From positions 1,009-65,008 of IMG/VR virus record IMGVR_UViG_3300031949_000028: DNA of 64,000 nt. One strand, given 5' to 3'. The notes under the pieces are model-generated. The model saw nothing but the letters and a program-made list of their open reading frames with translations. It did not search any database and had not been told where the DNA came from. Source of the DNA: a virus (Duplodnaviria; Caudoviricetes). Below are positions 11,055 through 52,583 of this stretch, piece after piece. The position numbers and the translations under genes were made by a program. Every line of letters starts with the position of its first letter. Position 1 is the stretch's first letter.

Positions 11055-11254
11055 TCTTCGTTCTCCTGAGAGCCTTCGCGGGCTCTCATAGTGTCGCCGT
11101 CCTTCCAATCTGTCTCAAGCGTCACGGCCGACCGCAGCAGTCTCTTTGCCGCTACCCGATACAGGGCCGAGTTCGTAGCCTGTGGGAACAGCCCCTCGAC
11201 TACGGTGAGTAACTTGTTGGCGTCTCGTAGAATGCTCATGGGTCGTCTTGGAAC

Positions 11255-19279: not shown

Positions 19280-19609
19280 CTAGAGCTGGGTTTTGCGGCG
19301 CTTGGTCGTGATGGGGGTCACGGCATCGCCACGAGCGAAGTAGGGGGTAACAAGCTCTTGCGGTCTAACGCCGAGGGCGGCGGCGAGCCATTCGATGTAG
19401 TCGATGCTCGTACCCTGGCTCTTGTCCAGGATGCGGTAGACTTGATTGATGCTGACGCCTGAGTCTGCGGCGAGCTGCCTGTTCTTGGCCGCGACAGACT
19501 TGAACTTGTCGGCCGGGTATTTCCGGTCCCGCAGCGTAGCGATGTTATCGGCTACGTAGTTCCGAACCAACGTCGGCGGTCGCTCTGATTTCGATCGTCG
19601 TTTCCCCAC
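19280..19609 (-). CDS. CI-like XRE HTH repressor (no S24 peptidase domain)
   Basis: GTG at 19609; NRQLAADSGVSINQVYRIL...SIDYIEWLAAALGV HTH; divergent from a cro-like gene. Confidence 0.8.
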   Translation of the reverse strand: MGKRRSKSERPPTLVRNYVADNIATLRDRKYPADKFKSVAAKNRQLAADSGVSINQVYRILDKSQGTSIDYIEWLAAALGVRPQELVTPYFARGDAVTPITTKRRKTQL

Positions 19610-19635
19610 GCTCAGATAGCCTACCTGCCCCGACT

Positions 19636-19677
19636 TCCCTAAATCGGGTTGCAGCGTCCCTAAAAAGGGATTAGCAT
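19636..19677 (+). promoter_or_regulatory. right operators and PR-like promoter
   Basis: TCCCTAAATCGGGT 19636-49 and TCCCTAAAAAGGGA 19657-70; TTGCAG (19649-54), 17 bp, TAGCAT (19672-77). Confidence 0.8.
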
Positions 19678-19685
19678 CCTGGGTC

Positions 19686-19898
19686 ATGGCTGAATCTATG
19701 CATGAGTTCGTTGTTCGTCGGCTTCTGGAATACCGGCCTATCGAGTGGCAGGAGATTGCCGAGAAAAGCGGCATTCCACTTCGCACGATCGAGAAGGTGG
19801 CCCGCCGCGTGTACCGATCGCACCGCATGGTGACGATTGAGCCGCTAGCTGAGCACTTGGGGTATTTCCGGCAGTTCCAGCGTCGTCGCGTTAGTTAG
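19686..19898 (+). CDS. Cro-like HTH protein
   Basis: WQEIAEKSGIPLRTIEKVA HTH; position opposite the repressor. Confidence 0.8.
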   Translation: MAESMHEFVVRRLLEYRPIEWQEIAEKSGIPLRTIEKVARRVYRSHRMVTIEPLAEHLGYFRQFQRRRVS

Positions 19899-25173: not shown

Positions 25174-25481
25174 CGAAGTACCGTAACAAGATCAGTCTGG
25201 ATGCAGACGGAGTGCCGTTCGCGAGCAAGCGTGAGCTAACGCGCTGGCGCGAGCTCGTGCTGCTCCAGACTGCCGGACTCATTTCCGAGCTACGCCGACA
25301 GGTGCGATTGCCGCTCGGTGTGAAGTACGACAGCGGGCGGGAAGCGGCACTCGTGGTGGACTTCATGTACGTCGAGAAGGGCGAGCAGAAATACGCCGAC
25401 GCGAAGGGTTTCGAGACGGACGCGAGCAAGCTCAAGCGCGCAATTCTGCGCAGCCGTGGAATTGAGATAGTGCTCGTATGA
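25167..25481 (+). CDS. DUF1064-family nuclease-like protein
   Basis: KYRNK...DGVPFASKRE...VVDFMY...DAKGFET. Confidence 0.8.
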   Translation: MVAKYRNKISLDADGVPFASKRELTRWRELVLLQTAGLISELRRQVRLPLGVKYDSGREAALVVDFMYVEKGEQKYADAKGFETDASKLKRAILRSRGIEIVLV

Positions 25482-25918
25482 GTGCTGATTTCGTCATGAA
25501 CGACGAGAACAAGGACCGCGTATTGGCGCGGCTCGTCGGATTCTTGCACAACTGGCCGAAGGACAAGCCGTGCCTGATTCACTGCGAGCTGTTCAAGATC
25601 GGGCGTTCTAGCAAGCAGAACCGGGCGCTATTCGGGCTCGCGTACAAGATCCTGCGCGACGAGACGGGGCACAGCGTGGATGAGCTGCATGATTTCTTCT
25701 GCAAGCGCTTCTTCGGCACCGTCGAGTACGACTTCTTCGGCGAGACGCGTACACGTCCCATGCGCACGACGACGACGGATGAGGACGGGAAGCGTGACGT
25801 GTTGCCGTGGGATCGGTTCAGCGATTTCTTCGAGTCAGTTCGTACCTTTGCGGCGAGCGAGCTCATGGTGAACATTCCGGACCCCGATCCGGATTACGAA
25901 CAGAAGCGTGCTGCATGA
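25478..25918 (+). CDS. NinB-like recombination protein
   Basis: RSSKQNRALFG...LHDFFCKRF...MRTT...FSDFFESVRTFAA. Confidence 0.7.
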   Translation: MSADFVMNDENKDRVLARLVGFLHNWPKDKPCLIHCELFKIGRSSKQNRALFGLAYKILRDETGHSVDELHDFFCKRFFGTVEYDFFGETRTRPMRTTTTDEDGKRDVLPWDRFSDFFESVRTFAASELMVNIPDPDPDYEQKRAA

Positions 25919-26021
25919 TTTTCGCCCGGCACCAGACGCCACAACCCCGATGGTGGCCGATTTGCAACCACAAAAGCGTCGCATGGTTTGGCCGCTGGTG
26001 TCCGGGCGATTCTAGGGAGGG

Positions 26022-26411
26022 ATGATGGCTGCAATCGCAAGTGAAGTAGCTCCGAGCCAGTGGCGCTGCCTCGAGCCCGAGGGGCGGGGCCACGAGCTGC
26101 TGATTACCTGGGGCATTCATAGGCGTGGAGGGGAGCGTACGCACTCTCCGATCTCGGCCCAGAAGTACGATCCACCTATGGACCCAGTGCATGACGATGA
26201 GCCGTATTCTGTGGTGCTGGTCGATGATGTGCTGCGTACGCTGGTGAGGACCGGACATGAGCATACGGTCGAGATTGCCAAGCGATTCTATCTTGAGCAT
26301 CCGAAGTACGATTTTTTTGAGGTAGCCGGCAGGGTCAGTCGAACCGAGGGATTCGTGCGGCTCACGCTTCGTGGTGTTTGCGAGCTTGTAGAAAATCGCG
26401 TACCGGAATAG
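26022..26411 (+). CDS. putative Q-like late antiterminator
   Basis: last early gene; the late promoter overlaps its 3' end and a terminator follows (lambda Q/PR'/tR' layout); positional call only. Confidence 0.45.
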   Translation: MMAAIASEVAPSQWRCLEPEGRGHELLITWGIHRRGGERTHSPISAQKYDPPMDPVHDDEPYSVVLVDDVLRTLVRTGHEHTVEIAKRFYLEHPKYDFFEVAGRVSRTEGFVRLTLRGVCELVENRVPE

Positions 26412-26475: not shown

Positions 26476-26497
26476 GCTCGCCACGCGCGGGCTTTTT
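26476..26497 (+). terminator. intrinsic terminator (tR'-like)
   Basis: GCTCGC-cacgc-GCGGGC followed by TTTTT. Confidence 0.7.
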
Positions 26498-26516
26498 CAT
26501 TTGGAGAACCGAACCC

Positions 26517-28979
26517 GTGCGAAGCCTCAAATGGCTCGTCGTCGCATTCGTATGTGCTGTACTTGCGCCGCCGTGGCTGACGTATGCGCAGTGGGTCCGT
26601 GGGACGGTCAATGGTGTTGAGACGTGTGTTGACGTAGCGGCTGGCGTTTCTATTCCTGCGGTCTACCCCAGGAGCAAGCCTGACACGACGAAGGCGTGCA
26701 AGGGGGCGAGCGCGCTGCTCGCGTGGCTCAAGTCGGCGAACGGTGCTGCCTATGCTGCCGGGCTATCGGCGGTATTCCCAGGCGCTCTGCCGGATGACAT
26801 ACCCAATACCGCGCCACCGGCTTCTGGTCCATCGCTGCACGCTCCGTGGTCGCAGTCCGACATCGGCTCCCCGTCGATCGCCGGGGATGCGTCCGACACA
26901 GCGAACGTGCTCACGACCTCGGGGCAGGGAAACTTCGCCAGCACGACGGTCCAGGGCCATAGCGTCCACCAAGAACTGACCGGGGACTATGAGGCGATCT
27001 GGTGCCCGGACTCGATCACGTCGGATTTGGTCTGGGCGCGGACGCTGATTCGCATCGCGGATTCTCTCGACGCCAACTCCGCGTTCATCTCCGCATCGCT
27101 CGACAACAACCCGAGCGCGACCGATGGCGCACAGATGGACGCTCGACTAACAACGGGTGCCGCGTCCATCTACGCGACCAATGCGTCGAATCAGAATCCG
27201 GGCGACACATGCCTGAAGGTGTCGCGCCTCGGTACAGCGGTCGCCGTGTACAGCAGCCCGGTCGCGCAGCCGTATGTCTGGACGCTGATCAACAACGGCT
27301 CGCAGACCATTACGTTTACTGGGTCTATCTGGATCGATGTCCTGACGCATAGCGGCGCCGCTGGCACGCTTGCGATCGCTATCGGCACCCTGCCAACGGT
27401 GAGCGCGATTGCGGGCGCGGCTGGGACTGTGGAGTTCACCGCGCCCACGATCTCGCAGGCCGAGAACGTCACCCCGCTCGTGATCTCGGTCTCGCGCAGC
27501 GGTGGATGTTCTGGTGCTGCGAGCGTGGCTGTGTCGAAGTCCGGTGGCACGGCAGCCGCCGGTACGGACTACACCGATCCGCCGTTTCCGGTCATGCTTA
27601 ATTGGAGCGACGGAAGCTGCACGACGCAGACGCAGAACGTGACGCTGATCGACCGCTCCGGCGTGCAGGCGAGCCGCACGCTCAACCTCGCGCTCGGCAG
27701 TTACTCGACGGTCGCGGCCGGTAGCCAAGTCACTCAAGCCGTCACAATCACCGACAACGACGGCGTTGACCGAGATTTGCACTTTGGTCACGGCGTTGCG
27801 GTTCGAGGTCTCTCGTACTCCGTTTGCACCGGCAACGAGTGCAATTCTGCGCCGACGCTTCAGACGATCACGGACGCCCAGAACCGGCGATTTGCGGTCT
27901 ACGACACCTCCGCGATCGCGAACAACGCGAACATCAAGACTATCCTGATTCAGATCCCGTGGAGCGTGTTCGAGTACGGCGGTCAGGGAGTGTACACACC
28001 GGCGTTCGACATGTTGCAAGCCGAGGTGACGAAGCTGCAATCACTCGCGCAACCCAAGTCGCTGATTCTGAGCATCATCGAGGTCCGTTACAACGATCCG
28101 ATCAACGCGATCTTTCCACCCTACATCAAACAAATGGGCGTGGCCTGGACCTCGGGGTCTGTTCCGCCGTCGGGCTCGACGTGCATGTACGGTCCGACCG
28201 AAGCGCCGTGGCTCGTAGAGGTCAAGTGGTGGAACACCGCGTGCATGAACCCGTACACCGCCCTCGTGGAGGCGCTCGGTGCGGAGTTCGACGACGTAGT
28301 AGGGTTCGAGGGCCTCTCGTTCATGAACGAGACGGCGTACACCTACGGCAGCAACGCGGCTACTGAGGGATTCAGTGCCGCGAATTTCAACACGAACCTG
28401 CGGGCGATGGTCACGGCGGGTGCCGCGGCGTGGCCGCACTCCCTCGCGATTATCCCCGTCACCTACACGTTCAACGGCAGTCAGTCCAACCTCATCTCGT
28501 TGGTGTCGCTCGCGGCGTCGCTCGGCGTTGGAATCGGCGCAGGCGATACCTGCCTGCCGTGGCGCCCGTCAGACGGAGTGACGAGCGGCGAGTGCAACTG
28601 GGACGGCGTACGGATCTGGCGCGGCGACATCGGCGGCCACGACTACCGCGGCACTGGCAGTGCTGCGAACGAAATCATCTACATGAGCCGCATCGAGGCG
28701 AGCGAGCTCGGGCTCAACTCGGTGGGCGCCTCGGGCGGCTACACCCCGACGCAGCTCATGGACTTCGCGGCCGGTGTACTGACAACCGGAGGGAACTTCA
28801 ACTTGCGCGCTAACTATATGATCTGGGACTACCAGAACTATGCGTCGGACGGCGCGCCGTGCTCCGGCACCGTCTGTCAGTTCAATACCGCGACGACGGG
28901 CGAGAATGCGATCATCAACACACGGACGTTTCCGGCCGGCAACTTGGCCTGTCCGACGAACTTGTCTGAAACGTGTTAG
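26517..28979 (+). CDS. secreted multidomain protein: ConA/DUF1349-like, Calx-beta-like and clan-A-like glycoside hydrolase barrel
   Basis: signal peptide MRSLKWLVVAFVCAVLAPPWLTYA; WSQSDIG..ELTGD..WAR; VEFTAPTISQAEN..VSRSGG..GTAAAGTDY; IPWSVFE..FD..KWWN..MNET; many paired Cys. Confidence 0.65.
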   Translation: MRSLKWLVVAFVCAVLAPPWLTYAQWVRGTVNGVETCVDVAAGVSIPAVYPRSKPDTTKACKGASALLAWLKSANGAAYAAGLSAVFPGALPDDIPNTAPPASGPSLHAPWSQSDIGSPSIAGDASDTANVLTTSGQGNFASTTVQGHSVHQELTGDYEAIWCPDSITSDLVWARTLIRIADSLDANSAFISASLDNNPSATDGAQMDARLTTGAASIYATNASNQNPGDTCLKVSRLGTAVAVYSSPVAQPYVWTLINNGSQTITFTGSIWIDVLTHSGAAGTLAIAIGTLPTVSAIAGAAGTVEFTAPTISQAENVTPLVISVSRSGGCSGAASVAVSKSGGTAAAGTDYTDPPFPVMLNWSDGSCTTQTQNVTLIDRSGVQASRTLNLALGSYSTVAAGSQVTQAVTITDNDGVDRDLHFGHGVAVRGLSYSVCTGNECNSAPTLQTITDAQNRRFAVYDTSAIANNANIKTILIQIPWSVFEYGGQGVYTPAFDMLQAEVTKLQSLAQPKSLILSIIEVRYNDPINAIFPPYIKQMGVAWTSGSVPPSGSTCMYGPTEAPWLVEVKWWNTACMNPYTALVEALGAEFDDVVGFEGLSFMNETAYTYGSNAATEGFSAANFNTNLRAMVTAGAAAWPHSLAIIPVTYTFNGSQSNLISLVSLAASLGVGIGAGDTCLPWRPSDGVTSGECNWDGVRIWRGDIGGHDYRGTGSAANEIIYMSRIEASELGLNSVGASGGYTPTQLMDFAAGVLTTGGNFNLRANYMIWDYQNYASDGAPCSGTVCQFNTATTGENAIINTRTFPAGNLACPTNLSETC

Positions 28980-29101
28980 TGCGGTACCCAGAAGTTCGGG
29001 GCTTTCACTGCGAGTCGGATCGCGAGCACGATCGACACGAGGACGATCACGACCACGAACGACTTGAAGAGTGGGCCGGCTTGGCCGTGGCTCTTACTCA
29101 T
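28976..29101 (-). CDS. 41-aa antisense membrane peptide
   Basis: MSKSHGQAGPLFKSFVVVIVLVSIVLAIRLAVKAPNFWVPH. Confidence 0.5.
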   Translation of the reverse strand: MSKSHGQAGPLFKSFVVVIVLVSIVLAIRLAVKAPNFWVPH

Positions 29102-29237
29102 GGCGTTCGATAATCCCGTTCCCACTGTTCGCACTGACGTTGGTTGTACCCGTCGCACGCGGGGGCAAAGCGTGAGCCTGCTGCGTAAAGCGTCCAGCCA
29201 GCGATGGCTACCAGGGACAGGGCCGCGACGATTTGCA

Positions 29238-30014
29238 TTGCTTTTCTCATGGGCCAGATCCTCCGTTGGGAAGGTAATAGTACCCGGAATCGTCGGGTTG
29301 TTCTGTGCGTTATGTCTTGCCCATGCCCAAGCGGCTGCTCCGACGTTTGATGAGGCGCCTGCCGGTACTGGGACGGTGGTCGGCGATCCGGCGTTATTTA
29401 CCTCCTATGCCTCGGCTGTTGCTGGGGCGACGCTTGAGATTGCCATCCGTGTCAACGGCACGGGAGACAATGTAGTCGGTTGCAGCGACTCGACCAACGG
29501 CGCGTGGACGGAAGTTGCCCAGGCCGACAATGGCGCTGCTAATTTCCAGGTGTGGAGATTTTATAACTCCGCATCAGGTGCCATTGCCGGAGTGCAGTGC
29601 GACCTCACTAGTTCGCTCACGTACCGAGGGGTATCAACTGCCTACACCGGGGCAGAGACAGCTAGCGCCATTGAGGCGATCACCACTGGCACGTTCGCCT
29701 CGACGACCTCGGTCACGACCTCGAACATCGTCACGACGTATACCGACGAGCTGACGCTATGCCACATCGCGCTAGACGGCAACTCTACGATCGACCCGGA
29801 GAGCTCGGAGAACGAGCGAACCGAGACGAGCACCAGAGTTCAAGAGCAGGACAAGGACGCCACGGCTGCCGGGACGTTTACACATTCTTGGACACTCGGT
29901 ACCGCTGCGGCTGGGTCTTATATTTGTTTCGGACTGAAGTCTACGACCTCGGTACTTTCTGGTGGTTTCAACCCAATTCTCGGCCCGACCTCGTTACCTG
30001 GGAGCGTTCAATGA
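29238..30014 (+). CDS. secreted beta-sandwich protein (module A1)
   Basis: start uncertain (TTG 29238; frame open from 28980); signal IVGLFCALCLAHAQA; Thr/Ala-rich; ends GGFNP. Confidence 0.6.
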   Translation: MLFSWARSSVGKVIVPGIVGLFCALCLAHAQAAAPTFDEAPAGTGTVVGDPALFTSYASAVAGATLEIAIRVNGTGDNVVGCSDSTNGAWTEVAQADNGAANFQVWRFYNSASGAIAGVQCDLTSSLTYRGVSTAYTGAETASAIEAITTGTFASTTSVTTSNIVTTYTDELTLCHIALDGNSTIDPESSENERTETSTRVQEQDKDATAAGTFTHSWTLGTAAAGSYICFGLKSTTSVLSGGFNPILGPTSLPGSVQ

Positions 30015-31096
30015 AGCGGCTCGTACTAGTCGCGCTTGCGTGTATCGCAATGCTGCCTGTACTTGCCGACACCTACAAAGGTGACTTCTTACTCGGCGAC
30101 ACGGTGCGCAAGGTTTACAGCCTTTCGACCACGGCCGGTGCGGACGTAGAGCGAACCGTTGCCGGAACAGCCTCATGCGTCGAGGACGGAGGAACGACTG
30201 AGATAACGGCTGGAGTTACAGACACCGGCACGACTGAGTTCGATGGCGTCGTCGGTAAAAACTTGCTAACGATCGTAGCTACAGCTGCGAATGGATTCGA
30301 GGCCAGCAAGGATTACGACTGTGGCGTACGGGCTTCTACGTTGAATGGCGTCACTGCGTCGTACGAAGTCGTCTCGTTCTCAATCGAGAACCGTTCTGAT
30401 AGCAGGGGCCGAATTCTCGCGCGCGACACTGCGAACACTGGCAGCACAGTGAGCGTCGTGAACGTCGATACCGCCGGCACGATCACGAGCACGAACCAGT
30501 ACATCGTGAACCGTCTGTGGAACGCGACGGCAGGATGGGACCGCGCTATCACCGCGACCACAACCGGCTCGCCCGACACGATCACGATCTATCCAGACTC
30601 GCCGAGCGCAACCGCCGACAATGACGTGCTGTACATCACGCGCGACATCATCTATCCGATCTCGCTAGACGGCACGGATGTTAACGTCACTAGCTTTGGT
30701 CCGACTCCGGTCACAGTCACTCAGCAGATGGCAGCGAACATTGTTACGCATTACGACAACAATAATACTGCGATCAGTTCAGCGACTGATTTATTGGGGG
30801 TTATCGGGACAAACGTCGCTGCGGCAGCTAACGGTGTGGTGAATGGAGGGGAAAACCTCACGGCATTGTTGCTAGATAACCAAATAGTCGAAGATGCCGG
30901 ATCGACGGACATCACTGCTCGTGGTGCGTTGTCTTTGTTGTTGTCGGAACGACTGGGCGCTTGCGACTTCACGGCTGGATCTCCGGATACCTGGGTCTGC
31001 GAAGACCCAAGCGGAACTGTGACGCGATTCACCATGACGTATGGAACCGATAACGGTGATCGGAGCGTTCCAACACTCGTTCCAGATGCACCTTAA
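30011..31096 (+). CDS. secreted Thr-rich protein (module B1)
   Basis: ATGA overlap; signal MKRLVLVALACIAMLPVLA; YKGDF..GDTV domain. Confidence 0.7.
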   Translation: MKRLVLVALACIAMLPVLADTYKGDFLLGDTVRKVYSLSTTAGADVERTVAGTASCVEDGGTTEITAGVTDTGTTEFDGVVGKNLLTIVATAANGFEASKDYDCGVRASTLNGVTASYEVVSFSIENRSDSRGRILARDTANTGSTVSVVNVDTAGTITSTNQYIVNRLWNATAGWDRAITATTTGSPDTITIYPDSPSATADNDVLYITRDIIYPISLDGTDVNVTSFGPTPVTVTQQMAANIVTHYDNNNTAISSATDLLGVIGTNVAAAANGVVNGGENLTALLLDNQIVEDAGSTDITARGALSLLLSERLGACDFTAGSPDTWVCEDPSGTVTRFTMTYGTDNGDRSVPTLVPDAP

Positions 31097-31267
31097 ATGC
31101 CCAATCGGCAGGAACCAGGAAAGCAGCAGCCTGATAAGCAAGAGCCTGGCAAACAAAGTCCTGGCTCTGAAACTCAAGCGCAGAATTTTGGGCCGGATGG
31201 TCCGTTTCTAGACTTACTGAGTCCCATACACAGCACGTTGGGGATATTTGTTTCTCTTGGCGAATAA
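31097..31267 (+). CDS. 56-aa peptide with QEPGK repeats
   Basis: TAAATG coupling; MPNRQEPGKQQPDKQEPGKQSPG... Confidence 0.4.
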   Translation: MPNRQEPGKQQPDKQEPGKQSPGSETQAQNFGPDGPFLDLLSPIHSTLGIFVSLGE

Positions 31268-31300
31268 TCTGTCTGCCGTACGAGGCACATAGGGAACATC

Positions 31301-31669
31301 ATGCGAAAGGTTATCTCAATCATTGCGCTGCTCGGATTCTCGTTCGCAGCTCAAGCTGCCTTCGACATCACCGCGACGATGCCGAGCACTCTAGGTGCAA
31401 CGAGCTGCCAGCTATACCTGGATGGTGTTGTGGCTGGGGCTACGAAGCCATGCGATTCGGCGAATCAGTATCCGGCGCTGATCGCTAATCCAGGGTCTTA
31501 CGTGTTCACGTACAAAGCGGTGAACGCAACGGGTGAGAGTGCGTTCTCGCCTGCAACCACGGTCAACATTCAGGTCATACCGCCGCCTGGTGATCCGCTA
31601 TCGGCACCTTCAGTCACGGTCACTTGCAATCCAGCGCCATGCAATGTCGTCGTCACGGTCATGCCCTAG
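31301..31669 (+). CDS. secreted Fn3-like protein
   Basis: signal MRKVISIIALLGFSFAAQA; YVFTYKAVNATGESAFS Fn3 strand; two Cys pairs. Confidence 0.75.
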   Translation: MRKVISIIALLGFSFAAQAAFDITATMPSTLGATSCQLYLDGVVAGATKPCDSANQYPALIANPGSYVFTYKAVNATGESAFSPATTVNIQVIPPPGDPLSAPSVTVTCNPAPCNVVVTVMP

Positions 31670-31982
31670 CTTTCGTGTGCTCGTTGATGCGTACGCGGCG
31701 GAGCTGATTCGTGCAGCTCTTATTGAGCATGGCTCGGTGGCGAAGGCAGCTAAAGCGTTGGGCTTGTGCCGCACTTACTGCTACAAACTTTTGCATCGGT
31801 ACGGCATTCGCTGGTCAAGCGATGCTGAGTTGGACGCCGCCGACGCAGAACACGGACGGAAGCGCGCTCACCGATCTAACGAGCTATCGGGCGTACTGGA
31901 ATTGTGGAAGCGGGACGGGCTATCCGTTCAGCGAGACGTTCGCAGCTCCAGCAACGACTCGCACGATTACCGGGCTACCTGA
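31644..31982 (+). CDS. Fis-type HTH ORF overlapping the next gene
   Basis: ELIRAALIEHGSVAKAAKALGLCRTYCYKLLHRYGI matches the Fis/HTH_8 consensus. Confidence 0.45.
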   Translation: MSSSRSCPSFRVLVDAYAAELIRAALIEHGSVAKAAKALGLCRTYCYKLLHRYGIRWSSDAELDAADAEHGRKRAHRSNELSGVLELWKRDGLSVQRDVRSSSNDSHDYRAT

Positions 31983-32859
31983 TGATGGCGGTACGTGTTA
32001 CTTCGCTCTGTCAGCGATCAACAGTGGCGGAGTTGAGAGTGCTGTTTCAAACGAGGCGAGCAAGCTACTGCCGGTCGTTGCGGTCGGAGACCCGACAGTC
32101 GGTCCGACGATCACGTGGACCGAGAGACTAGCGATGGCTGAGCCGACCTTCGTCGAGTATGACGAGTCAACTTATAGCGACATTGGCCCTACTGACGAAC
32201 TCGCCTCTGCTTCTACGTGGCAGACCGGCGACATTGTTTTAGTTTTTGGTGGTCACAGTACCAACGACGCTGCGAATCAGCTCGGGACTCCGACAGTTAC
32301 GAGCGGAAGTGGGACCGGACTTACGTTCTCCCTGTTGGCAAGCGTCAATAATGCGGCAGGCAGCAATGACACCCAAGTATTTCTCTGGACAGCGACCGCG
32401 GCTGGCAATGGGTCTGGAGCAATTCAATCCGTTACGTCGGCTACAGCTAATGGCCTGCGGTCGGGTATTTCAGTACTCATTTATCGAGGATCTGACGGTT
32501 TAGGGACGCCGGTCACGCTGGACGGCTCGACGGCCAAGACGATATCGGTCACGCGCGCTCAAGCAAATTCGCACGTAGCGCTGATGCTGGCGGATTGGGC
32601 TCAGGTCGGCGATGTCACGGTTACTGCAACTCCGAGCGGAACAGTTAGGCACGCCTCCGCTGAAGCGGGCCAAGCCGATTTCTTTGTCGTTACTTTTGGA
32701 GATCAAGGAGCGACCGGAACCACTTCCTACGGCATCACGGATCACACCGGCACGGTCGATATGTCGGGCATCGCCGTTGAGATCAAGGGCACGGCTGGCG
32801 GCAGTGCGTTTAATCCGGCTCCTGTCGTCAATTACCAGGCCATGATGCGGGCTAACTGA
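31729..32859 (+). CDS. secreted Fn3 plus beta-sandwich protein (module A2)
   Basis: signal MARWRRQLKRWACAALTATNFCIGTAFA; LSWTPPTQNTDGSALTDLTSY Fn3; ends SAFNPA; possible internal start at MAEPTF. Confidence 0.75.
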   Translation: MARWRRQLKRWACAALTATNFCIGTAFAGQAMLSWTPPTQNTDGSALTDLTSYRAYWNCGSGTGYPFSETFAAPATTRTITGLPDDGGTCYFALSAINSGGVESAVSNEASKLLPVVAVGDPTVGPTITWTERLAMAEPTFVEYDESTYSDIGPTDELASASTWQTGDIVLVFGGHSTNDAANQLGTPTVTSGSGTGLTFSLLASVNNAAGSNDTQVFLWTATAAGNGSGAIQSVTSATANGLRSGISVLIYRGSDGLGTPVTLDGSTAKTISVTRAQANSHVALMLADWAQVGDVTVTATPSGTVRHASAEAGQADFFVVTFGDQGATGTTSYGITDHTGTVDMSGIAVEIKGTAGGSAFNPAPVVNYQAMMRAN

Positions 32860-34772
32860 TGTCTAGGACGGTAGCCCAAAACAGTTCGGCCAATGTCGTT
32901 ATAGGCCCGTTGGTAAATGTGTCAGGAGATTTCCTGGCAGGGCTTACGATTGCCAATACTGCAATCGTGCTGGTGAAGGAATCCAGCGTTTCGGCTGCAC
33001 GTGCGGCGACGACTTCGGCGCTTTCGGTGGGACCTGGACTCTACCGTATTGTGCTCGCTACGGCTGATACCGATACGCTTGGTGAGCTCACCGTGTTTGT
33101 CTCAGGTTCGGGGGCCTTGTCATATGCTCGTAACCTCGAGATATGGCAGAGCACGACGTGGAACCTCTATTTCGGTTCTGCCGAGCAAATTCTCACGAGT
33201 GCTGCGGCGAGCGTGTTGGTTTCGGTTCGAGTCAATGTGGCGCTTGGCAATTACGACGTTCCAACATCCGCCGATATCTCGGCCATCGTGGTGGGGGTGC
33301 TCACCAATTACGACGTACCGACTAGCGCTGACATTTCTGTCCTAGTGAGCGTGGGTGTTAACACTGCTCTAGTTAACAGACAGGTTCCGAGCTCTGCTGC
33401 GGTCTCTGCTATTGTTATCCAGGCTCTGACCGATCGCGATGTTCTGACTTCGGCGGCAGCGAGCGTCATGGTGAGCGTTCTGACGAACACGGCGCTGGTG
33501 AACTATGACGTTGCGACGAGTGCGGATGTTTCCGCGATCCTTGCCAATATTGGTGGGGTGAGCTCGGCTGCAGTGTCCGCTATCGTTGCAGGGGCTTTAA
33601 CCAACTACGACGTTGCGACCTCGGCGGATGTGTCGGTGATCGTAGCAAATCTCGGCGGTCTCACCTCCGCTGCGGTTTCTGGCATCGTCGCAGGCGCATT
33701 GACCAATTACGATGTTGCAACCAGTGCTGATGTTTCGGTCATTCTGGCGGCTACTGGCGCGGTGAGCTCGGCTGCGATCTCTGGCATCGTTGCTGGAGCG
33801 TTGACTAACTACGATGTAGCCACTTCTGCCGATGTATCGGTCATCATCGCCGCAGTGGGTGGACCAAGCTCTGCGGCTATTTCCGGAATCGTAGCCGGCG
33901 CCTTGGCGAACTATGACGTACCGACCAGTGCGGGCATATCGGCCATCGGCGTTTTGGTGTTGACCAACTACGACGTTCCAACCAGTGCCGATATCTCTGT
34001 TCTGGTGAGCGTTGTAGTTAACGCCGCGCTCACGAATTTTGGAGTACCTACCTCTGCCGCGATGAGTGCAGCCATGAGCGCGGTCGGAGCGTTGGTACTC
34101 GCAAACTACGATGCTCCGACCTCAGCGGATGTGAGCGCCATCGTTATCGGGGCGTTGACAGGGTATGACGTGCCGACGAGTGCCGATGTTTCGGTGTTGG
34201 TCAGTGTGGGGGTCAATGCTGCTCTAACTAACTTCGGGGTTCCTACTTCTGCCGCGATGTCAGCGGCCATGAGTGCCGTGGGGGCAGGAGTTCTCACTAA
34301 CTATGGGGTTCCGACTAGCGCTGGTGTTTCGGTCCTAATAAGTGTCGGTGTCAACGCTGCGTTGACTAATTACGGGGTGCCGACCTCTGCGGCTATGAGT
34401 GCTGCGGTGAGTGCGGTTATGGTCGGGGTGTTGACCAATTATGACGTGCCTACGTCTGCGGATATTTCTGCGATAGTATCGGCGGTCATGAGTGGGGTGC
34501 TCGCTTCCTACGATGTTGCGACCAGTGCGGATGTCAGCGCGATTGTTGGGCCGGCGGTTTGGAGGGTGGCGGGGACCGAGCCTTCGAGCGCTCCGGAATG
34601 GACTAGCGTGAATCGCGGACAGCTTCAAGACTGGATGGGAGCCCGCAGTTTCAATCGCCACGCGCAAACTGGGTCCGAGATCGAGATATTCAGCTCCGCG
34701 GGGGCGGTGATTGCTTCGGCCTCGATTTCCAACAACTCCGCTTCTGCAGTAAGGGATCAGTTCGTTGGCTAG
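32859..34772 (+). CDS. repeat-rich fibre-like protein (module B2)
   Basis: N-terminal IGPLVN..GLTIANT..GLY..L.TADTDTLGEL domain, then 18 NYDV(P/A)TSA repeats. Confidence 0.8.
   Translation: MSRTVAQNSSANVVIGPLVNVSGDFLAGLTIANTAIVLVKESSVSAARAATTSALSVGPGLYRIVLATADTDTLGELTVFVSGSGALSYARNLEIWQSTTWNLYFGSAEQILTSAAASVLVSVRVNVALGNYDVPTSADISAIVVGVLTNYDVPTSADISVLVSVGVNTALVNRQVPSSAAVSAIVIQALTDRDVLTSAAASVMVSVLTNTALVNYDVATSADVSAILANIGGVSSAAVSAIVAGALTNYDVATSADVSVIVANLGGLTSAAVSGIVAGALTNYDVATSADVSVILAATGAVSSAAISGIVAGALTNYDVATSADVSVIIAAVGGPSSAAISGIVAGALANYDVPTSAGISAIGVLVLTNYDVPTSADISVLVSVVVNAALTNFGVPTSAAMSAAMSAVGALVLANYDAPTSADVSAIVIGALTGYDVPTSADVSVLVSVGVNAALTNFGVPTSAAMSAAMSAVGAGVLTNYGVPTSAGVSVLISVGVNAALTNYGVPTSAAMSAAVSAVMVGVLTNYDVPTSADISAIVSAVMSGVLASYDVATSADVSAIVGPAVWRVAGTEPSSAPEWTSVNRGQLQDWMGARSFNRHAQTGSEIEIFSSAGAVIASASISNNSASAVRDQFVG
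33245..34550 (+). repeat. intragenic tandem repeat, 18 units of 19/23/34 aa
   Basis: core L(T/A)NYDV(P/A)TSA(D/A)(I/V)S; synonymous codons have diverged; boundaries approximate. Confidence 0.85.
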
Positions 34773-35010
34773 TCTACAAGTCCTACTAGGATTCGGATTC
34801 GAGCATCAGGAGCTTGTATTCGGATTCGGGCAGACGGCCGAGGAGCAGTTATGGAACCGCATGGGGCTAATCGGAGGATTGCCTGTAACTGAGGACCCGG
34901 TGGATTTCGATTTCGGCCGGCCGTTTTTGAGTCGATCGGCTCGCACAGCCACTGAAATCGAGCAGCCGAGTCTCATGGCCTCCAGGGTTATATCGAGATC
35001 CACGCTGTGA
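34765..35010 (+). CDS. hypothetical protein
   Basis: coupled ORF. Confidence 0.5.
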   Translation: MASLQVLLGFGFEHQELVFGFGQTAEEQLWNRMGLIGGLPVTEDPVDFDFGRPFLSRSARTATEIEQPSLMASRVISRSTL

Positions 35011-35339
35011 GCAATCCGCGCAAAGGGTCCTACGGATACACCATTCGTATCCTGACCGGGATCGACATGAACGACTTTGAGAATATCGCTCTCAGAGCCT
35101 CGGCTTCGAGCAACGGGGGGTTTAATCTCTATCGCTCGGCCTCTACACTCTTTGTCGGCAACTCGACGGTGTATTCGAGCACCGAGGGGCTTACGTTCCC
35201 GAGTGCTCGATGGGTGTACGGGCAGAACCTCACGGCGAATGCTTTCAACACTGCGGATGATTATTCGATGTGGATCGTAGCGGACTCGACCGGGGAGCAT
35301 TTCATCAGCCCCGTGGTGGTCATTACAGTGGACCCATGA
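35007..35339 (+). CDS. small beta-rich structural-type protein
   Basis: coupled ORF, beta-strand pattern. Confidence 0.55.
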   Translation: MSNPRKGSYGYTIRILTGIDMNDFENIALRASASSNGGFNLYRSASTLFVGNSTVYSSTEGLTFPSARWVYGQNLTANAFNTADDYSMWIVADSTGEHFISPVVVITVDP

Positions 35340-35887
35340 GCTATCCCGTCAGGTTCGATTGGCCGGCGATTAGGGCTTTGTACGAAGCCGGGGAGAGTCC
35401 GGCGCACATCGAGCAGCGGCCCGGTATGCCGACACGACAGGCCATACACGGGCGGATTAAGAAAGAGGGTTGGATCGTCATCGGCAAGCCTGACGAGTCA
35501 ATGAAGCTCATTGATTTCGAGGGGCTATCCGTTGAGCAGCAGCTAGTGATCCAGGAAGTGAGCCAAGGGGCTACTCAGAGACAGGCTGCAGCGATTGCCG
35601 GGGTGCATGAGTCTACGGTCTCAGATTGGAAGGCCGAGAACCCACGATTCGCCAAGGCGATGGCGGCGGGTAAGGCCGTGAAGGTTCGGCGACGAATCGG
35701 TAAGATCGAGGAATCAACGGACTGGCACTCGCAGGCTTGGCTGACAGAACGCGATCAGGACTCTAGAGCCGAATATGCTCCTCCGGCTTCCTCGCGCGGG
35801 ACGTTCACCGGGAACACTTTCAACGTGTTGGGACATGTGAGTCTCGGGATCGAGCGCGACGAGATCCCTGCGTTACCGGCCGAGTAG
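35336..35887 (+). CDS. putative terminase small subunit (HTH)
   Basis: ATG at 35336; DWPAIRALYEAG, TQRQAAAIAGVHESTVSDWK, DWHSQAWLTER. Confidence 0.6.
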   Translation: MSYPVRFDWPAIRALYEAGESPAHIEQRPGMPTRQAIHGRIKKEGWIVIGKPDESMKLIDFEGLSVEQQLVIQEVSQGATQRQAAAIAGVHESTVSDWKAENPRFAKAMAAGKAVKVRRRIGKIEESTDWHSQAWLTERDQDSRAEYAPPASSRGTFTGNTFNVLGHVSLGIERDEIPALPAE

Positions 35888-36703: not shown

Positions 36704-36752
36704 TTGTAACCGTTCACGTTGTAACCGGTAACGCACCGTGTTACCGTTCACG
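36704..36752. repeat. three 15-bp direct repeats with an embedded inverted repeat
   Basis: TTGTAACCGTTCACG (36704), TTGTAACCGGTAACG (36719), GTGTTACCGTTCACG (36738); CGGTAAC-7-GTTACCG. Confidence 0.7.
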
Positions 36753-36754
36753 CT

Positions 36755-36997
36755 ATGGGTGAGGTGTATTGCAGCCGTTGCAGGAAGCTGGGGCACTTAG
36801 CGGCGAAGTGTCCTGGAGCGGCGCCGAAGCCCAAGGTCTTGAGGCAACCGCTGCTGAAGCAGTCCGTGACTCCGAAGCGTCCGAAGGTATCGGATGACAA
36901 TGAAGCCTGTCCGACGTGTGGCGCGAATTTAGCTGCGAGGCGTCGAGAGAGGGAGCGGCGGCGGGAGTACATGAAGAAGCGGAGGGCCGCGAAGTGA
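36755..36997 (+). CDS. CCHC zinc-knuckle protein
   Basis: CSRCRKLGHLAAKC = CX2CX4HX4C; CPTC; Arg-rich tail. Confidence 0.6.
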   Translation: MGEVYCSRCRKLGHLAAKCPGAAPKPKVLRQPLLKQSVTPKRPKVSDDNEACPTCGANLAARRRERERRREYMKKRRAAK

Positions 36998-37656
36998 GCG
37001 CCAAGTACGTCGCCTACTACCGTGTTTCGACGCAGAGGCAGGGTGTGAGTGGGTTGGGGTTAGAGGCTCAGCGTGCGGCGGTAGGGGCGTACACCGGCTC
37101 GGTATTGGGTGAGTATGTGGAGGTCGAGTCTGGGAGGCGGCACGACAACCGGCCGGAGCTCGACAGGGCTTTAGCGCATTGTAGAAGTGCGCAGGCGGTG
37201 TTGTTGATCGCGAAGTTGGACAGGTTGTCGAGGAACGTCGCTTTCTTGGCTTCTCTGATGGAGTCTGGGGTTGAGATCATGGCCTGTGACATGCCCCAAG
37301 CGAACCGGTTCACGTTACACGTTTTAGCCGCGGTGGCGGAGCAGGAGTCAAGAATGATCTCCGATCGGACTCGTGCGGCGATCAAGGCGCGCTTGGCGAG
37401 AGGAAAGCCGTGGGATCACGTCGTGCCTCCGCGTGGGACGCCCGAGAGGGCTCTGAAAGCGAGGGCAGCGAGGGCAAGACAGTTAGAGGCGCGGAAGGCT
37501 GATTTCGCTCCGGTGGTCAGTGGAATCAAGGAGCGTGGTGTTCGGTCGATGCGCGGGATTGCCGAGGAGCTGAACCGGATGGGGTATGTGGGGTTGCAGG
37601 GGGGCAAGTTTCATGCCTCTTCGGTGCGGGGGTTACTTTTGGACGGAAATTCTTGA
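36994..37656 (+). CDS. small serine recombinase (resolvase/invertase family)
   Basis: GTG at 36994; YVAYYRVSTQRQ, VEVESG, RPELDRAL, IAKLDRLSRN. Confidence 0.92.
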   Translation: MSAKYVAYYRVSTQRQGVSGLGLEAQRAAVGAYTGSVLGEYVEVESGRRHDNRPELDRALAHCRSAQAVLLIAKLDRLSRNVAFLASLMESGVEIMACDMPQANRFTLHVLAAVAEQESRMISDRTRAAIKARLARGKPWDHVVPPRGTPERALKARAARARQLEARKADFAPVVSGIKERGVRSMRGIAEELNRMGYVGLQGGKFHASSVRGLLLDGNS

Positions 37657-41898: not shown

Positions 41899-42266
41899 CG
41901 ATCAGAGTGATGACTGCCGGTTCTGTGAGCGCGAACTATCACGTTCACGTTCGCCGCAGCGATACCCCTGGTAACACGTCGGTGTCGGCTGGTTACGCCA
42001 ACGAGCGCACACTGTGTATTCCGGTGATGGTTCAAGATACCCGTATCACGGTGCTTGGCACGTTCGGATCAGGTTCAGCCTCCACCGTAGTAGCTCTAGA
42101 CATCGGTCCCAACGGCTCGGCGTACATCAACCTGTTCAGTATCTCAGCTCCGTTCACGACGACGATCCCGGTGCAAGTGGATCACGTCCTGAGGTTTAGA
42201 CATTCCTACACCTCCGCGGCAGTAGCAGGAGCGTTAGGCGCATCGGTCGATGCCTGGGTCGGCTAG
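41895..42266 (+). CDS. small beta-rich hypothetical protein
   Basis: coupled ORF before terL. Confidence 0.6.
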   Translation: MTIRVMTAGSVSANYHVHVRRSDTPGNTSVSAGYANERTLCIPVMVQDTRITVLGTFGSGSASTVVALDIGPNGSAYINLFSISAPFTTTIPVQVDHVLRFRHSYTSAAVAGALGASVDAWVG

Positions 42267-47289: not shown

Positions 47290-47587
47290 GCGATGGCTCG
47301 CTAAGAACGGAGATCCATCGCGCGCCAAGCATCACGTCATCGGCGATATCGATCCCTACATGCCGGTGACGGGAGACATGCAGGGCAAGTGGATCACGTC
47401 GCGCAAACAGCATCGCGAGTTCTTGAAGCGTAACAATTTAGTCGAGGTCGGAAACGAGAAGGCGTACATGACCCGCCACGGCGGCATGTCGCCTGACAAT
47501 CCGAACCTCATCAGTGACGAGAAGCACGAGGAGCAGATATGCAGGAACCTGATGGAGAGCTTGGAGCAGTTGAAGAGTCGTCGGTAG
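47237..47587 (+). CDS. conserved phage protein between portal and scaffold
   Basis: DIDPY..V..G.WITSRKQHREFLKRNNLVEVGNE. Confidence 0.7.
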   Translation: MRKRYRYDAETKTVLPLERWLAKNGDPSRAKHHVIGDIDPYMPVTGDMQGKWITSRKQHREFLKRNNLVEVGNEKAYMTRHGGMSPDNPNLISDEKHEEQICRNLMESLEQLKSRR

Positions 47588-48627: not shown

Positions 48628-48638
48628 GAGCAAAGTAA

Positions 48639-51000: not shown

Positions 51001-51029
51001 GGGGGCCAGAAATGGCCCCCTTTCTTTTT
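51001..51029 (+). terminator. intrinsic terminator
   Basis: GGGGGCCA-gaaa-TGGCCCCC followed by TTTCTTTTT. Confidence 0.85.
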
Positions 51030-51921: not shown

Positions 51922-52583
51922 CAACGTTTCACCCCGACACGTTCAAGGCGTTCGCCCGAGATTGCGTTTTGCGCATGAGTCAACTATGGCCGGGCCCGAT
52001 CCGAGTTTACTTCGAGAGCTCGGCTCCTCCGGCGCTCGATGGGACGGGGGTCGAGTGCCGGCCTCTCAATTCTCCGGAACGCTCCGCGTTCTTGGCGCGA
52101 GAGATTCCAGATCGTAGGGGGTTCTTGTGGGACGCGAAGCGGTTTTGCCACAAGGTTTTCGCGCAGCTCGACGCGGCGGCAGAGGGTGAGCCGTTCTGGT
52201 GGATCGATGCCGATGTCGCGATCTTCCGCCGAGTTCCTGAGGAGCTCTTGGAGCAACATGAGCTCGTGACGTTCTTGGGGCGTGACACGTACACCGAAAC
52301 CGGATTGGTTGGCTTCAACCCGAAGCACCCCGAGTTCGCGGAGTTCATCTCGCGCTATCGCTCGATGTACACGGACGGAAAGATCCTTGATTTGCCAGGA
52401 TGGACCGATTGCCATGCGTTCGACGCGGCGCGTCAAGGCATGGGTCGAGACCTAACTCCGGATGGGAAGGGGTTTGACAATGTGATGGTGGAGTCTCCCT
52501 TTGGGCCGTACATGGCTCACTACAAAGGGCCGCTCAAGTTGGAGCTGTATCGACTAGGAGGAGCGAATGCAGTTAACGGTTAG
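51909..52583 (+). CDS. putative nucleotide-diphospho-sugar transferase
   Basis: KRFCHKVFAQ, WWIDADV (DxD), GWTDCHAFD. Confidence 0.7.
   Translation: MLAITTFHPDTFKAFARDCVLRMSQLWPGPIRVYFESSAPPALDGTGVECRPLNSPERSAFLAREIPDRRGFLWDAKRFCHKVFAQLDAAAEGEPFWWIDADVAIFRRVPEELLEQHELVTFLGRDTYTETGLVGFNPKHPEFAEFISRYRSMYTDGKILDLPGWTDCHAFDAARQGMGRDLTPDGKGFDNVMVESPFGPYMAHYKGPLKLELYRLGGANAVNG

Follow-up and report, generated by a model that had tools for sequence, protein, structure and literature searches.

An 8.8-kb cassette in the genome of an uncultured phage encodes five proteins, here designated A to E, that are very probably exported and disulfide-bonded, judging from their sequences. What makes this very probable is that the leaders are kept in relatives and that, in the family of protein C, leader and Cys pairs co-occur. 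The cassette lies in a window of 64,000 nucleotides, the whole stretch of DNA that was analysed. The 65-kb genome carries a podovirus-type adaptor as well as a tyrosine integrase, a CI-like repressor and ERF, which indicate a temperate lifestyle, and the host of the phage is probably diderm. We tentatively interpret the stretch, with somewhat less than even confidence, as a module with which a temperate podovirus-type phage recognises the host surface, most of the module's proteins having moved to the Sec route. In our reading, A to E would be late-made, Sec-exported, disulfide-bonded proteins that recognise host glycans and are released by lysis.

Concerning its position, the cassette is preceded (plus strand, as are all features below unless stated otherwise) by a NinB/Orf-like gene (25478..25918; phrog_72, E 5.6e-5), a marker of the lambdoid 'nin region', and by a 129-aa gene (26022..26411) that sits where lambda carries Q; its role is suggested by position only, and it had no match in Pfam or PHROG. 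A terminator-like hairpin follows (26476..26501 with its T-run, stem-loop 26476-26492), recognised by a consensus scan and in the sequence itself, with a 6-bp stem and a 5-nt loop before the T-run; hairpin and T-run together lie 15 nt 5' of the start codon of gene A. At the other end lies terS, encoding the small terminase (35336..35887; phrog_4102, E 7.6e-10). The order NinB-like gene, Q-position gene, hairpin, cassette and terS puts the cassette in the place of lambdoid late genes. The first-pass annotation had described a late promoter and a terminator in front of gene A. No sigma-70-like promoter was found in a scan of 25.5-37 kb, and what is left of that description is the hairpin, a type of site that the consensus scan found no more frequently than in shuffled sequences.

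The stop and start codons of E, F, G, H and terS overlap throughout, indicating translational coupling. F (32859..34772, 637 aa) has neither leader nor Cys and is fibre-like, and the small leaderless G and H (81 and 110 aa; 34765..35339) are coupled to F and to terS, the ATG of which overlaps the stop codon of H. For the earlier suggestion that the leader genes share an operon with a fibre-like repeat protein upstream of terS, coupling was seen from E through terS. A is split from B. Between these two genes lie two tiny, ATGA-coupled ORFs on the minus strand (28976..29250; 50 and 41 aa), each encoding one hydrophobic helix, the first with a GGAGGA ribosome site and neither with a PHROG match. 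Because of this split, the cassette may comprise several transcription units. Gaps of approximately 200-260 nt precede B and D. None of A to H matched PHROGs, no relatives of B, F, G or H were present among about 120 fetched loci, and the close phage relatives in IMG/VR (L002 and L003; portal 62-67%) end before reaching the cassette.

Export signals were scored with a home-made Sec/SPI rule (not SignalP), the elements of which are a positively charged n-region, an h-region made up of 8-18 uncharged hydrophobic residues, and small residues at -3 and -1. The genes carrying them start at the coordinates initially given. Among the 97 ORFs of the window, A (26517..28979, 820 aa), B (29238..30014, 258 aa), C (30011..31096, 361 aa) and D (31301..31669, 122 aa) obtained the four highest scores (12.9-17.5), with cleavage predicted after residues 24, 30, 19 and 19, respectively. 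The start codon of B is a weak TTG. E (31711..32859, 376-382 aa) scored a borderline 8.5, and the best ORF outside the cassette, a doubtful small one, scored 10.0. Cleavage of E is predicted after residue 28, numbering from the ATG at 31729. Its leader, weak and either Sec- or Tat-like, contains an R-R pair, then Q-L-K and a weakly hydrophobic h-region, and the Tat motif S/T-R-R-x-F-L-K is incomplete. Moreover, the leader is dual-coded, sharing its bases with a small HTH ORF in another frame (31644..31982; HTH_50/Fis-like, PF18024, E 2.2e-7, 30.9 bits against a cut-off of 27) that overlaps the end of D, the leader of E and the start of the E Fn3 domain. Locus L082 has a similar HTH_8 gene in a module of this type. 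Five Sec-type leaders had been proposed; those starting at 26517, 29238, 30011 and 31301 are clear, and the fifth (31711/31729), overlapped by the HTH ORF, is weaker.

Conservation of the leaders was examined in the A, C and E families, B and D being without homologues. In the A family the leader was kept in all 10 homologues read with a complete N-terminus. Close homologues of C have it in 6 of 6 cases, and there it persists across 37-65% identity with canonical cleavage sites. The closest full-length homologue of E (P0172) is also leader-bearing. Furthermore, the three IMG/VR loci with a leader-bearing C-like gene each contain a second gene with a Sec or Tat-type leader. In L040 this second gene is the direct upstream neighbour of the C-like gene, and in L113 it lies a short way upstream; L113 is a related provirus in which the gene following the portal gene displays a clear R-R-x-F-L leader.

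The distribution of Cys was then compared. With the leaders removed, the Cys counts are even in all five proteins (16 in A, 4 each in B, C and D, and 2 in E), as the claim of paired Cys had implied, while F, G, H and terS contain none and eight head/tail proteins contain 0-2. Even mature counts were also found in 11 of 12 members of the A family (A included), the twelfth having an ambiguous cleavage site. In the C family, leader and conserved Cys pairs were either both present or both absent: in leader-bearing members the mature Cys number 6, 6, 6, 6, 6 and 8 and occupy aligned positions, the four leaderless homologues have none, and the median for 71 leaderless C-like proteins from IMG/VR is 0. 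Ser and Thr together account for 18-24% of residues in A to F against 11.7±3.7% in the remaining ORFs, in agreement with the earlier description of these proteins as Ser/Thr-rich.

Protein A comprises the leader (residues 1-24), a conserved N-region (25-105), a ConA-like domain (110-298), a Calx-beta domain (302-415) and a (beta/alpha)8 barrel (419-812); the lectin-like, Calx-beta and GH-like labels first attached to the region thus hold for this protein, with a barrel of GH clan-A type. The Calx-beta domain was recognised by Pfam (PF03160, 29.9 bits against a cut-off of 27) and by fold (TM 0.90 to CALX-CBD1, 3ead). The ConA-like domain had no sequence-family match and adopts a DUF1349-type fold in comparison with 3mep (Z 20.2, rmsd 2.4, 170 aligned) and 3o12 (Z 19.2). 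The barrel, in a model of moderate confidence (pLDDT 71), resembles GH14 beta-amylases and GH5 enzymes (Z 19-20.5). Clan GH-A enzymes have their two catalytic Glu where strands 4 and 7 end; in A, Glu605, preceded by Asn, and Glu727 come after predicted strands and are kept in 6-7 of 8 other barrel-type homologues. Pfam offered no family for the barrel, whether in A or among 12 homologues, and nothing outside Calx-beta matched PDB sequences. In sister proteins, a right-handed beta-helix takes the place of the barrel. A was matched by 3,419 proteins, mainly via Calx-beta. Searches of IMG/VR viral contigs with A, P0109 and P0168 gave no match. As a member of an enzyme family that is secreted, A most likely cleaves a polysaccharide of the host surface, and the family is an uncharacterised group of probable polysaccharide degraders with either a barrel or a beta-helix at the C-terminus. 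A protein of this size with lectin domains and a barrel of GH-A type does not match known muralytic folds, and we rejected the idea that A is a Sec-exported endolysin.

Protein C, whose start overlaps the stop codon of B, consists of the leader, an N-terminal domain shared with more than 100 uncultured phages and a variable fibre-like remainder. Among 74 IMG/VR genes with the N-domain that were analysed, a leader was present in 3. C-like genes usually lie in head or packaging modules, between the portal and capsid genes or just 5' of terS/terL, and their products range from 175 to 1262 aa. After cleavage, C would begin at the point where its leaderless homologues start. A conserved N-domain, a variable distal part and a gene in the structural module fit the pattern of a fibre or appendage. 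A scan of GTDB genomes for the C family returned two MAG fragments only (Desulfocapsa and Ca. Solibacter). Queries with A, with C itself and a consensus-like form of its domain, and with the E-domain had no match in 50,697 cultured-phage records, and the E-domain and C-family profiles had none among PDB sequences, where the base (Rcc01079) and the fibre (Rcc01080) of the RcGTA head spike served as comparison targets. C displayed no similarity to F, nor A to E, in pairwise comparison. A 56-aa Pro/Gln/Lys-rich ORF beginning directly 3' of the C stop codon (31097..31267) is a doubtful gene. As for B, its Ser/Thr-rich beta-type domain occupies the slot of a gene for an approximately 250-aa beta-sandwich protein, which in other phages comes before C-like genes; comparison of B with the E-domain profile was not significant (1.8% probability).

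E contains an Fn3 domain (residues 30-105) and a beta-sandwich (136-357), the latter of a minor-tail-protein type that is widespread among phages. Neither E nor D matched Pfam, fn3 included, and the Fn3-like label initially given is supported for E by fold (residues 22-109; TM 0.70 to 5dft, Z 8.8) and is weak for D, a small Fn3/Ig-like domain resembling the N-terminal part of E (E 0.001). A leader-bearing relative in L088 matches Pfam fn3 at 7.9e-11. D was also considered as a spanin and rejected, having neither a lipobox nor a C-terminal membrane helix. The beta-sandwich of E matches predicted structures of mycobacteriophage minor tail proteins, among them those of Gaia, Tweety and Stubby (TM up to 0.72), and P0176, a homologue 67% identical to E, matches phrog_553 at 5.6e-5. 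Foldseek gave no clear match for the sandwich in the PDB, and in a wide VIA structure search with E, Fn3 matches dominated and one borderline match was to a Tuc2009 RBP head (Z 8.8). In high-GC phage contigs, the E-domain forms the N-terminal head of 500-1100-aa proteins in the tail-fibre region; homologues 70% identical occur as stand-alone, leaderless proteins beside unrelated genes. F is composed of an N-terminal domain, 18 repeats of 19, 23 or 34 aa and a C-terminal domain, and no solved structure was found for it among PDB sequences.

On sequence comparison, B, C and E appear as exported counterparts of ordinary leaderless phage proteins, and B with C, as well as D with E, would represent the exported form of a two-gene unit that is frequent among uncultured phages. 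This unit consists of a beta-sandwich protein of approximately 250 aa, then a fibre-like protein with a conserved N-domain and a variable distal part. We propose that the cassette genes would be expressed alongside the late genes for packaging and the head, and that A to E would be threaded through Sec, lose their leaders, fold with disulfides in the periplasm and get outside upon cell lysis. We lean towards the view that B, C and E, along with the leaderless fibre F, may still be virion appendages; they could join a cytoplasm-built particle only at lysis, and A would act free or ride on a fibre. Particles of tailed phages assemble in the cytoplasm, and tailed phages are not known to mount periplasmic parts, two points that count against the appendage view. 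We regard a two-compartment assembly, in which Sec/Tat-exported fibres and lectins fold in the periplasm with disulfides and are mounted on particles at lysis, as less likely than not. If true, phages could borrow domains of secreted host proteins directly as receptor-binding parts. A limited search of open-access full text found no paper on Sec-exported tailed-phage fibres.

The cassette shares features with several known systems. Like loci for tail fibres, receptor-binding proteins and depolymerases, it pairs a conserved N-domain with distal parts that are exchanged (C family, 175-1262 aa) and contains domains of lectin-like, Fn3 and glycanase type, a repeat-built fibre (F), a swap between barrel and beta-helix at the C-terminus of the A family, and tight coupling with structural and packaging genes. 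The textbook phage fibre lacks a leader and is folded in the cytoplasm; here, five proteins have Sec-type leaders and paired Cys, and the module lies 5' of terS, not 3' of the tail genes. The sandwich of E resembles actinobacteriophage minor tail proteins (phrog_553) but is fused to a leader and Fn3, in a phage with a probably diderm host and a podovirus-type adaptor. A is like secreted bacterial CAZymes in its three folds (DUF1349-type ConA-like, Calx-beta, and GH5/GH14-like barrel or pectate-lyase-like beta-helix), its leader and its even Cys count, and differs in that its barrel has no Pfam family and its gene opens a phage late block. The virion of Agrobacterium phage Milano also has Cys pairs in outer parts; in the cassette such pairs accompany leaders, while the paper on this disulfide-rich virion does not mention a signal peptide or the periplasm (PMC10811340).

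Late-made, Sec-exported phage cargo released by lysis is an already known idea from Stx phages. The toxin subunits have Sec leaders, mature in the periplasm and are released through phage lysis, events established there and inferred here. Expression of stx is under the control of Q and the late promoter (PMC5120812). There, stxAB lies downstream of Q, the late promoter and its terminator; here, likewise, the cassette is flanked on one side by the Q-place gene and the terminator-like hairpin and on the other by genes for packaging. However, the present cargo is of fibre and CAZyme type, not a toxin, and some of it derives from genes of the ordinary phage structural module; in addition, the scan found no promoter for the cassette, and the Q-place gene is assigned by position.

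This precedent also favours a different explanation, which we consider somewhat unlikely, namely that A to E are all exported, act free and stay apart from the particle throughout. As lectins and a glycanase acting on a surface polysaccharide receptor, they would bind, mask or destroy it from the periplasm or after lysis, in the manner of a receptor-destroying enzyme, so that progeny would not stick to debris, other phages would be excluded or biofilm would be loosened. Export separates the proteins from the site of particle assembly, the A family consists of secreted enzymes not found on IMG/VR viral contigs, suggesting that A may be bacterial-type cargo, and bacterial-looking contigs (L017, L018 and L020) encode large proteins with leaders that include the E-domain. 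On the other hand, C retains the invariant residues of an N-domain that is fibre-anchor-like in 71 leaderless genes of head and packaging modules, and E is coupled through F, a leaderless fibre-like protein, to G, H and terS. Textbook accounts describe tailed-phage morphogenesis as entirely cytoplasmic. The fibre-module families examined here exist in two states, most members being leaderless and Cys-free and a minority having a leader and conserved Cys pairs. Either periplasm-matured parts finish some particles, or copies of a phage's own recognition modules became secreted factors, and either outcome informs the evolution of phage host range and the uptake of secreted host-protein domains. 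Pipelines for predicting receptor-binding proteins that drop leader-bearing proteins as "non-structural" would overlook such proteins.

Compared with a recognition module moved to the Sec route, the remaining explanations seem improbable to different degrees. Phage exclusion proteins are often exported, T5 Llp and Cor being examples, and since the phage is temperate, the genes might be expressed in the prophage from their own promoters, housed in the gaps before B and D or near the antisense mini-genes, and alter the lysogen envelope for lysogenic conversion or superinfection exclusion. We judge this improbable, considering the absence of promoter-like sites in 25.5-37 kb, the single coupled string from E through terS, and the large size and fibre-type modules of the cassette. 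It is still less probable that the leaders are unused and that the proteins are ordinary virion components folded in the cytoplasm, their Cys being oxidised only after lysis. Disulfide networks without export signals do exist in virions (PMC10811340), the E leader is weak and dual-coded, and the B start codon is uncertain; nevertheless, the top scores of A to D, the canonical cleavage sites kept in divergent homologues and the joint presence or absence of leader and Cys pairs in the C family argue otherwise. Least probable, and in our view very unlikely, is the proposal of the first-pass annotation, a dedicated surface structure or multi-part extracellular apparatus, which the glycan enzymes encoded at 39-42 and 51-54 kb would modify. 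It could draw on five consecutive exported proteins with one fibre-like protein and on glycan genes near C-like genes in other phage contigs (L085, L086 and L102). However, secretion, pilus and assembly components are absent, and the parts are independent modules found singly in other phages: an enzyme of a secreted family and exported copies of ordinary fibre-module proteins. Modification of A to E is likewise not borne out. The glycan enzymes are leaderless and lie within the head module, also in the related phage L003, which places them in the cytoplasm, and the capsid or the leaderless Ser/Thr-rich F are better candidate targets than the Sec-exported proteins.

The IMG/VR record of this phage comprises 65,008 bases and was rated complete by CheckV, the window covering nearly all of it. 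The phage is temperate, with genes for a tyrosine integrase (10077-11108) and a CI-like repressor (19280-19828), both on the minus strand, and for an ERF recombinase; it also encodes DNA methylases. Among cultured phages it has no close relative, the best match to its terL being 39% identical. The plus strand carries all genes from about 19.9 kb onward. Small genes, among them those for a Dam-type methylase and a NinB/Orf-like protein, precede the cassette of leader-bearing genes A (26517-28979), B (29238-30014), C (30011-31096), D (31301-31669) and E (31711 or 31729 to 32859). These are followed by the leaderless genes F (32859-34772) and G and H (34765-35339), and by terS (phrog_4102), which starts with the ATG at 35336. 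Downstream lie genes for a serine recombinase, a DUF6745 protein, a methyltransferase, GDP-mannose 4,6-dehydratase and an FkbM methyltransferase, then the intein-bearing terL, the portal gene and a split major capsid gene, and finally four further glycan or methyl-transfer genes, an SU10-type adaptor and more virion genes. The insert carried by terL (terL at 42250-44967) is of the LAGLIDADG intein type, and the capsid gene (47539-50461) is split around a LAGLIDADG endonuclease ORF; both genes are uninterrupted in the related loci L002 and L003.

From gene order we infer a lambdoid arrangement by position: the NinB-like gene is followed by one of 129 aa in the place of lambda Q, then by a hairpin and its T-run, the cassette and terS. 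The NinB/Orf-like and 129-aa genes occupy 25478-26411; the latter belongs to no detectable family and is a candidate new late-gene regulator. The first-pass annotation had placed a late promoter before the cassette. A consensus scan of 25.5-37 kb revealed no sigma-70-like promoter; the one feature it detected, at 26476-26492, was a terminator-like hairpin of a kind that was not commoner than in shuffled sequences.

Signal peptides had been proposed for all five cassette genes, whose starts agreed with the coordinates given at that time. We applied a strict rule of our own, which demands an n-region of net positive charge, an h-region of 8-18 residues that is uncharged and at least 70% strongly hydrophobic, small residues at -3 and -1, and a total length of 15-36. 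The proposal held for A-D, whose scores (12.9-17.5) were the top four among 97 ORFs. It was weaker for E, which scored 8.5, while the best score outside the cassette was 10.0, on a doubtful 66-aa ORF. The E leader shares bases with a small HTH ORF (31644-31982; HTH_50, 30.9 bits against a Pfam cut-off of 27), and an alternative start at 31822 would leave a leaderless Fn3 domain. From sequence comparison we think that the E leader is real, because the leader of P0172, the closest full-length homologue of E (74% identity in the domain search), is more typical, and both proteins share the residues that flank the predicted cleavage site. The HTH_50/Fis-like ORF lies in another frame and overlaps the end of D, the E leader and the start of the E Fn3 domain. 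An HTH_8 gene is present in the module of locus L082, and a small regulator may belong to such cassettes.

After leader removal, the Cys counts were even in all five proteins (A, 16; B, 4; C, 4; D, 4; E, 2), consistent with the paired Cys noted previously. The predicted mature proteins begin at residue 25 in A, 31 in B, 20 in C and in D, and 29 in E. F, G, H and TerS contain none, and eight head and tail proteins, 4,076 residues together, contain seven in all. The Ser/Thr richness described at first was also found, Ser and Thr accounting for 18-24% of residues in A-F against 11.7±3.7% elsewhere. Stop and start codons overlap at E/F, F/G, G/H and H/terS (ATG at 35336), and E, F, G, H and terS thus form one translational string. 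The only start of B is a TTG without a good ribosome site. Within the 259-nt gap between A and B, the minus strand (28976-29250) carries two ATGA-coupled ORFs, of 50 aa and 41 aa. Both contain a single hydrophobic helix, and a strong ribosome site (GGAGGA) precedes the first. No family was found for either; they could be a small membrane toxin, a holin-like or an exclusion pair.

The strongest result of the analysis concerns the C family. Six close homologues of C (37-65% identical) all possess a leader, with the cut preceding an acidic residue and Tyr, and four remote homologues begin directly at the domain. Scanning IMG/VR gave 111 relatives; 80 loci were kept, in which 74 C-like genes were identified. 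Conservation covers the first ~110 residues that follow the leader position, and the remainder varies in proteins of 175-1262 aa. A leader was present in 3 of the 74 (L040, L041 and L113). C-like genes were located between the portal and scaffold or capsid genes (L095, L098, L113) or immediately upstream of terS or terL (L076, L080, L082, L088, L103, L065, L067), and bear the marks of a putative virion appendage with an N-terminal anchor. The leader-bearing proteins have 6, 6, 6, 6, 6 and 8 mature Cys at aligned positions (four in C itself), one pair lying inside the conserved N-terminal domain. The four leaderless homologues have none, and in the 71 leaderless IMG/VR proteins the median is 0, with 38 of the 71 lacking Cys entirely. 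The leader and the disulfide-type Cys were thus acquired jointly and retained jointly, which argues that the leaders are functional.

C-like genes often overlap, by 1-4 bases, the gene directly upstream, which often encodes a beta-type protein of ~240-290 aa (L042, L048, L063, L071, L088, L091, L115). The upstream protein of L048 matches the profile of the beta-sandwich formed by residues 136-357 of E, the E-domain (8.3e-7). L088 carries, in order, a leader-Fn3 gene (Pfam fn3, 7.9e-11), a leaderless ~255-aa protein, a leaderless C-like gene and terS/terL, and L044 has a 123-aa leader-Fn3 gene near its C-like gene. In L082, a leader-bearing protein with 10 Cys, the HTH_8 gene and the C-like gene all precede terS. 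L040 encodes leader-bearing proteins of 907 and 256 aa followed by a leader-bearing C-like protein; the 256-aa protein has weak E-domain similarity (hhalign 59%), and the order and overlap of the last two genes equal those of B and C. In L113 (provirus G003), the gene directly after the portal gene (8339-9400) encodes 353 aa with a textbook twin-arginine leader and lies shortly upstream of the Sec-leader C-like gene, so that exported proteins lie in the middle of a head module. Although similarity of B to the E-domain family was not significant, B fills the slot of an E-domain-type gene upstream of C-like genes, and D has weak similarity (E 0.001) to the leader-plus-Fn3 part of E. From the loci surveyed it follows that a common phage unit is present twice in the cassette, as B-C and as D-E, and that where the fibre-like member is exported, a neighbouring gene also carries a leader.

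The E-domain represents a family of 76 clusters with identities of up to 80%. Most members are stand-alone proteins of ~240 aa that begin exactly at the domain, without a leader and with few Cys; P0181, P0186 and P0235 have a short leader directly before the domain, and P0172 has a leader and Fn3 as in E. The predicted structure (pLDDT about 90) resembled, among predicted viral structures in Foldseek, minor tail proteins of Mycobacterium and Gordonia phages and unnamed rhizobial-phage proteins (TM up to 0.72). One homologue matches phrog_553, 'minor tail protein', and a wide structure search matched the Tuc2009 receptor-binding head at a borderline level (Z 8.8). The domain heads 500-1100-aa proteins of the tail-fibre region on high-GC viral contigs and is internal to large leader-bearing proteins on bacterial-looking ones. 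P0183, P0209 and P0198 carry, at the C-terminus, long arrays of a ~17-aa repeat matching phrog_14065, another fibre-like extension of the domain. At the DNA level, a 22-nt inverted repeat (32173-32194 and 32882-32903; 19/22 complementary, 687 nt apart) brackets the E C-terminal domain and the first F codons. No other pair of this kind occurs in 25.9-37 kb, where shuffled sequences predict 0.05; the bracketed DNA could be invertible or exchangeable, or the pair could be due to chance. A resolvase/invertase-type serine recombinase gene (36916-37656; PF00239, 6.6e-26) lies 4 kb downstream; just upstream of it, three close copies of a 14-nt motif (36705-36752) are a possible recombinase binding site.

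Concerning A, a word-based search returned Calx-beta relatives only, and an exhaustive HMMER search returned 3,419 proteins, mostly through Calx-beta, about a dozen of which have the whole plan of A. P0038, P0061, P0068, P0109 and P0141 match A over most of their length. In P0079, P0080, P0098/P0168 and P0117, an A-like N-terminal half is joined to a C-terminal region of another type, matching PF13229 (right-handed beta-helix) in two of them. All ten homologues with a complete N-terminus have a leader, and 11 of 12 family proteins, A included, have even numbers of mature Cys, the twelfth having an ambiguous cleavage site. The AlphaFold model of A (pLDDT 71) has three folded parts, in accordance with the lectin-like, Calx-beta and GH-like domains first assigned: a predicted ConA-like sandwich (residues 110-298; Z 20.2, rmsd 2.4 to 3mep), a Calx-beta domain (302-415; TM 0.90 to 3ead) and a (beta/alpha)8 barrel (419-812; Z 19-20.5 to GH14 beta-amylases and to mannosidases, glycoceramidases and glucanases of GH5). 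Two Glu residues located after predicted strands, Glu605 (next to a preceding Asn) and Glu727, are kept in most barrel-type homologues, which makes them candidates for the clan GH-A acid/base and nucleophile. Two A homologues searched for in IMG/VR were not found there. Thus, A looks like a member of a secreted polysaccharide-active enzyme family with an exchangeable catalytic end.

F has neither leader nor Cys, and the nearest look-alikes of its N-terminal domain are unnamed viral proteins. Its repeats are 18 old copies of 19, 23 or 34 aa with DNA identities of 60-80%. It had been suggested that the glycan enzymes of the phage modify the exported proteins. These enzymes lack leaders, are conserved inside the head module of L003 (portal 62%), and A-E would leave unfolded through Sec; if the enzymes modify anything here, the cytoplasmic, Ser/Thr-rich F would therefore be the better candidate. 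The MptE/Maf-like, DxD-transferase, methyltransferase and GT8 genes between capsid and adaptor (51028-54072) are kept in the related phage (L003:8391-11228) and recur near C-like genes elsewhere (L086:14929-18562), a pattern suggestive of cytoplasmic glycosylation of a virion protein. In L085, L086, L102, L066 and L110, the 10 kb around the C-like genes include GDP-mannose dehydratase, GT8, DxD-transferase or MptE/Maf-like genes, a proximity that carries no background rate.

Leaders, Cys parity, folds, coupling to terS, the leader-Cys correlation and an ancestry in leaderless phage modules were observed. By inference, the cassette would be expressed late, and its products would be exported through Sec, oxidized by a DsbA-type system and released at lysis, and would bind or cleave glycans. 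The released proteins may be mounted on particles at lysis. C retains the invariant residues of the presumed anchor domain, cleaved C begins where leaderless homologues begin, its neighbour is co-exported, and E is coupled to the leaderless fibre F and to terS. Fibres, spikes and decoration proteins of T4, P22 and lambda (gpD) are classically added in vitro to finished particles, which also counts for mounting.

Alternatively, the proteins may be free exported factors. The A family resembles ordinary secreted enzymes, export keeps the proteins apart from assembly, and the E-domain is also used in bacterial secreted proteins. Stx phages provide a precedent for late, exported, lysis-released cargo. 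In these phages, Q and the late promoter control the stx genes (PMC5120812). Expression as conversion genes from the prophage seems less likely, as does the possibility that the leaders are unused and the Cys become oxidized after lysis as in phage Milano, the report on which makes no mention of a signal peptide (PMC10811340).

Each of the domains is known, as are modular fibre loci and exported late cargo. A limited search of open-access full texts returned no description of a tailed phage whose fibre-module proteins bear export signals coupled to conserved disulfide-type Cys. Sequence profiles of the E-domain and C families gave no match to the RcGTA head spike. As the same families occur in two states, with and without a leader, the choice between mounted and free proteins is directly testable, and it is this that makes the cassette of interest. 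Apart from the cassette, a plausible signal peptide was also found at the right end of the window, on a 142-aa minus-strand ORF (63331-63759) that matched no family and is a candidate lysis or exclusion protein.
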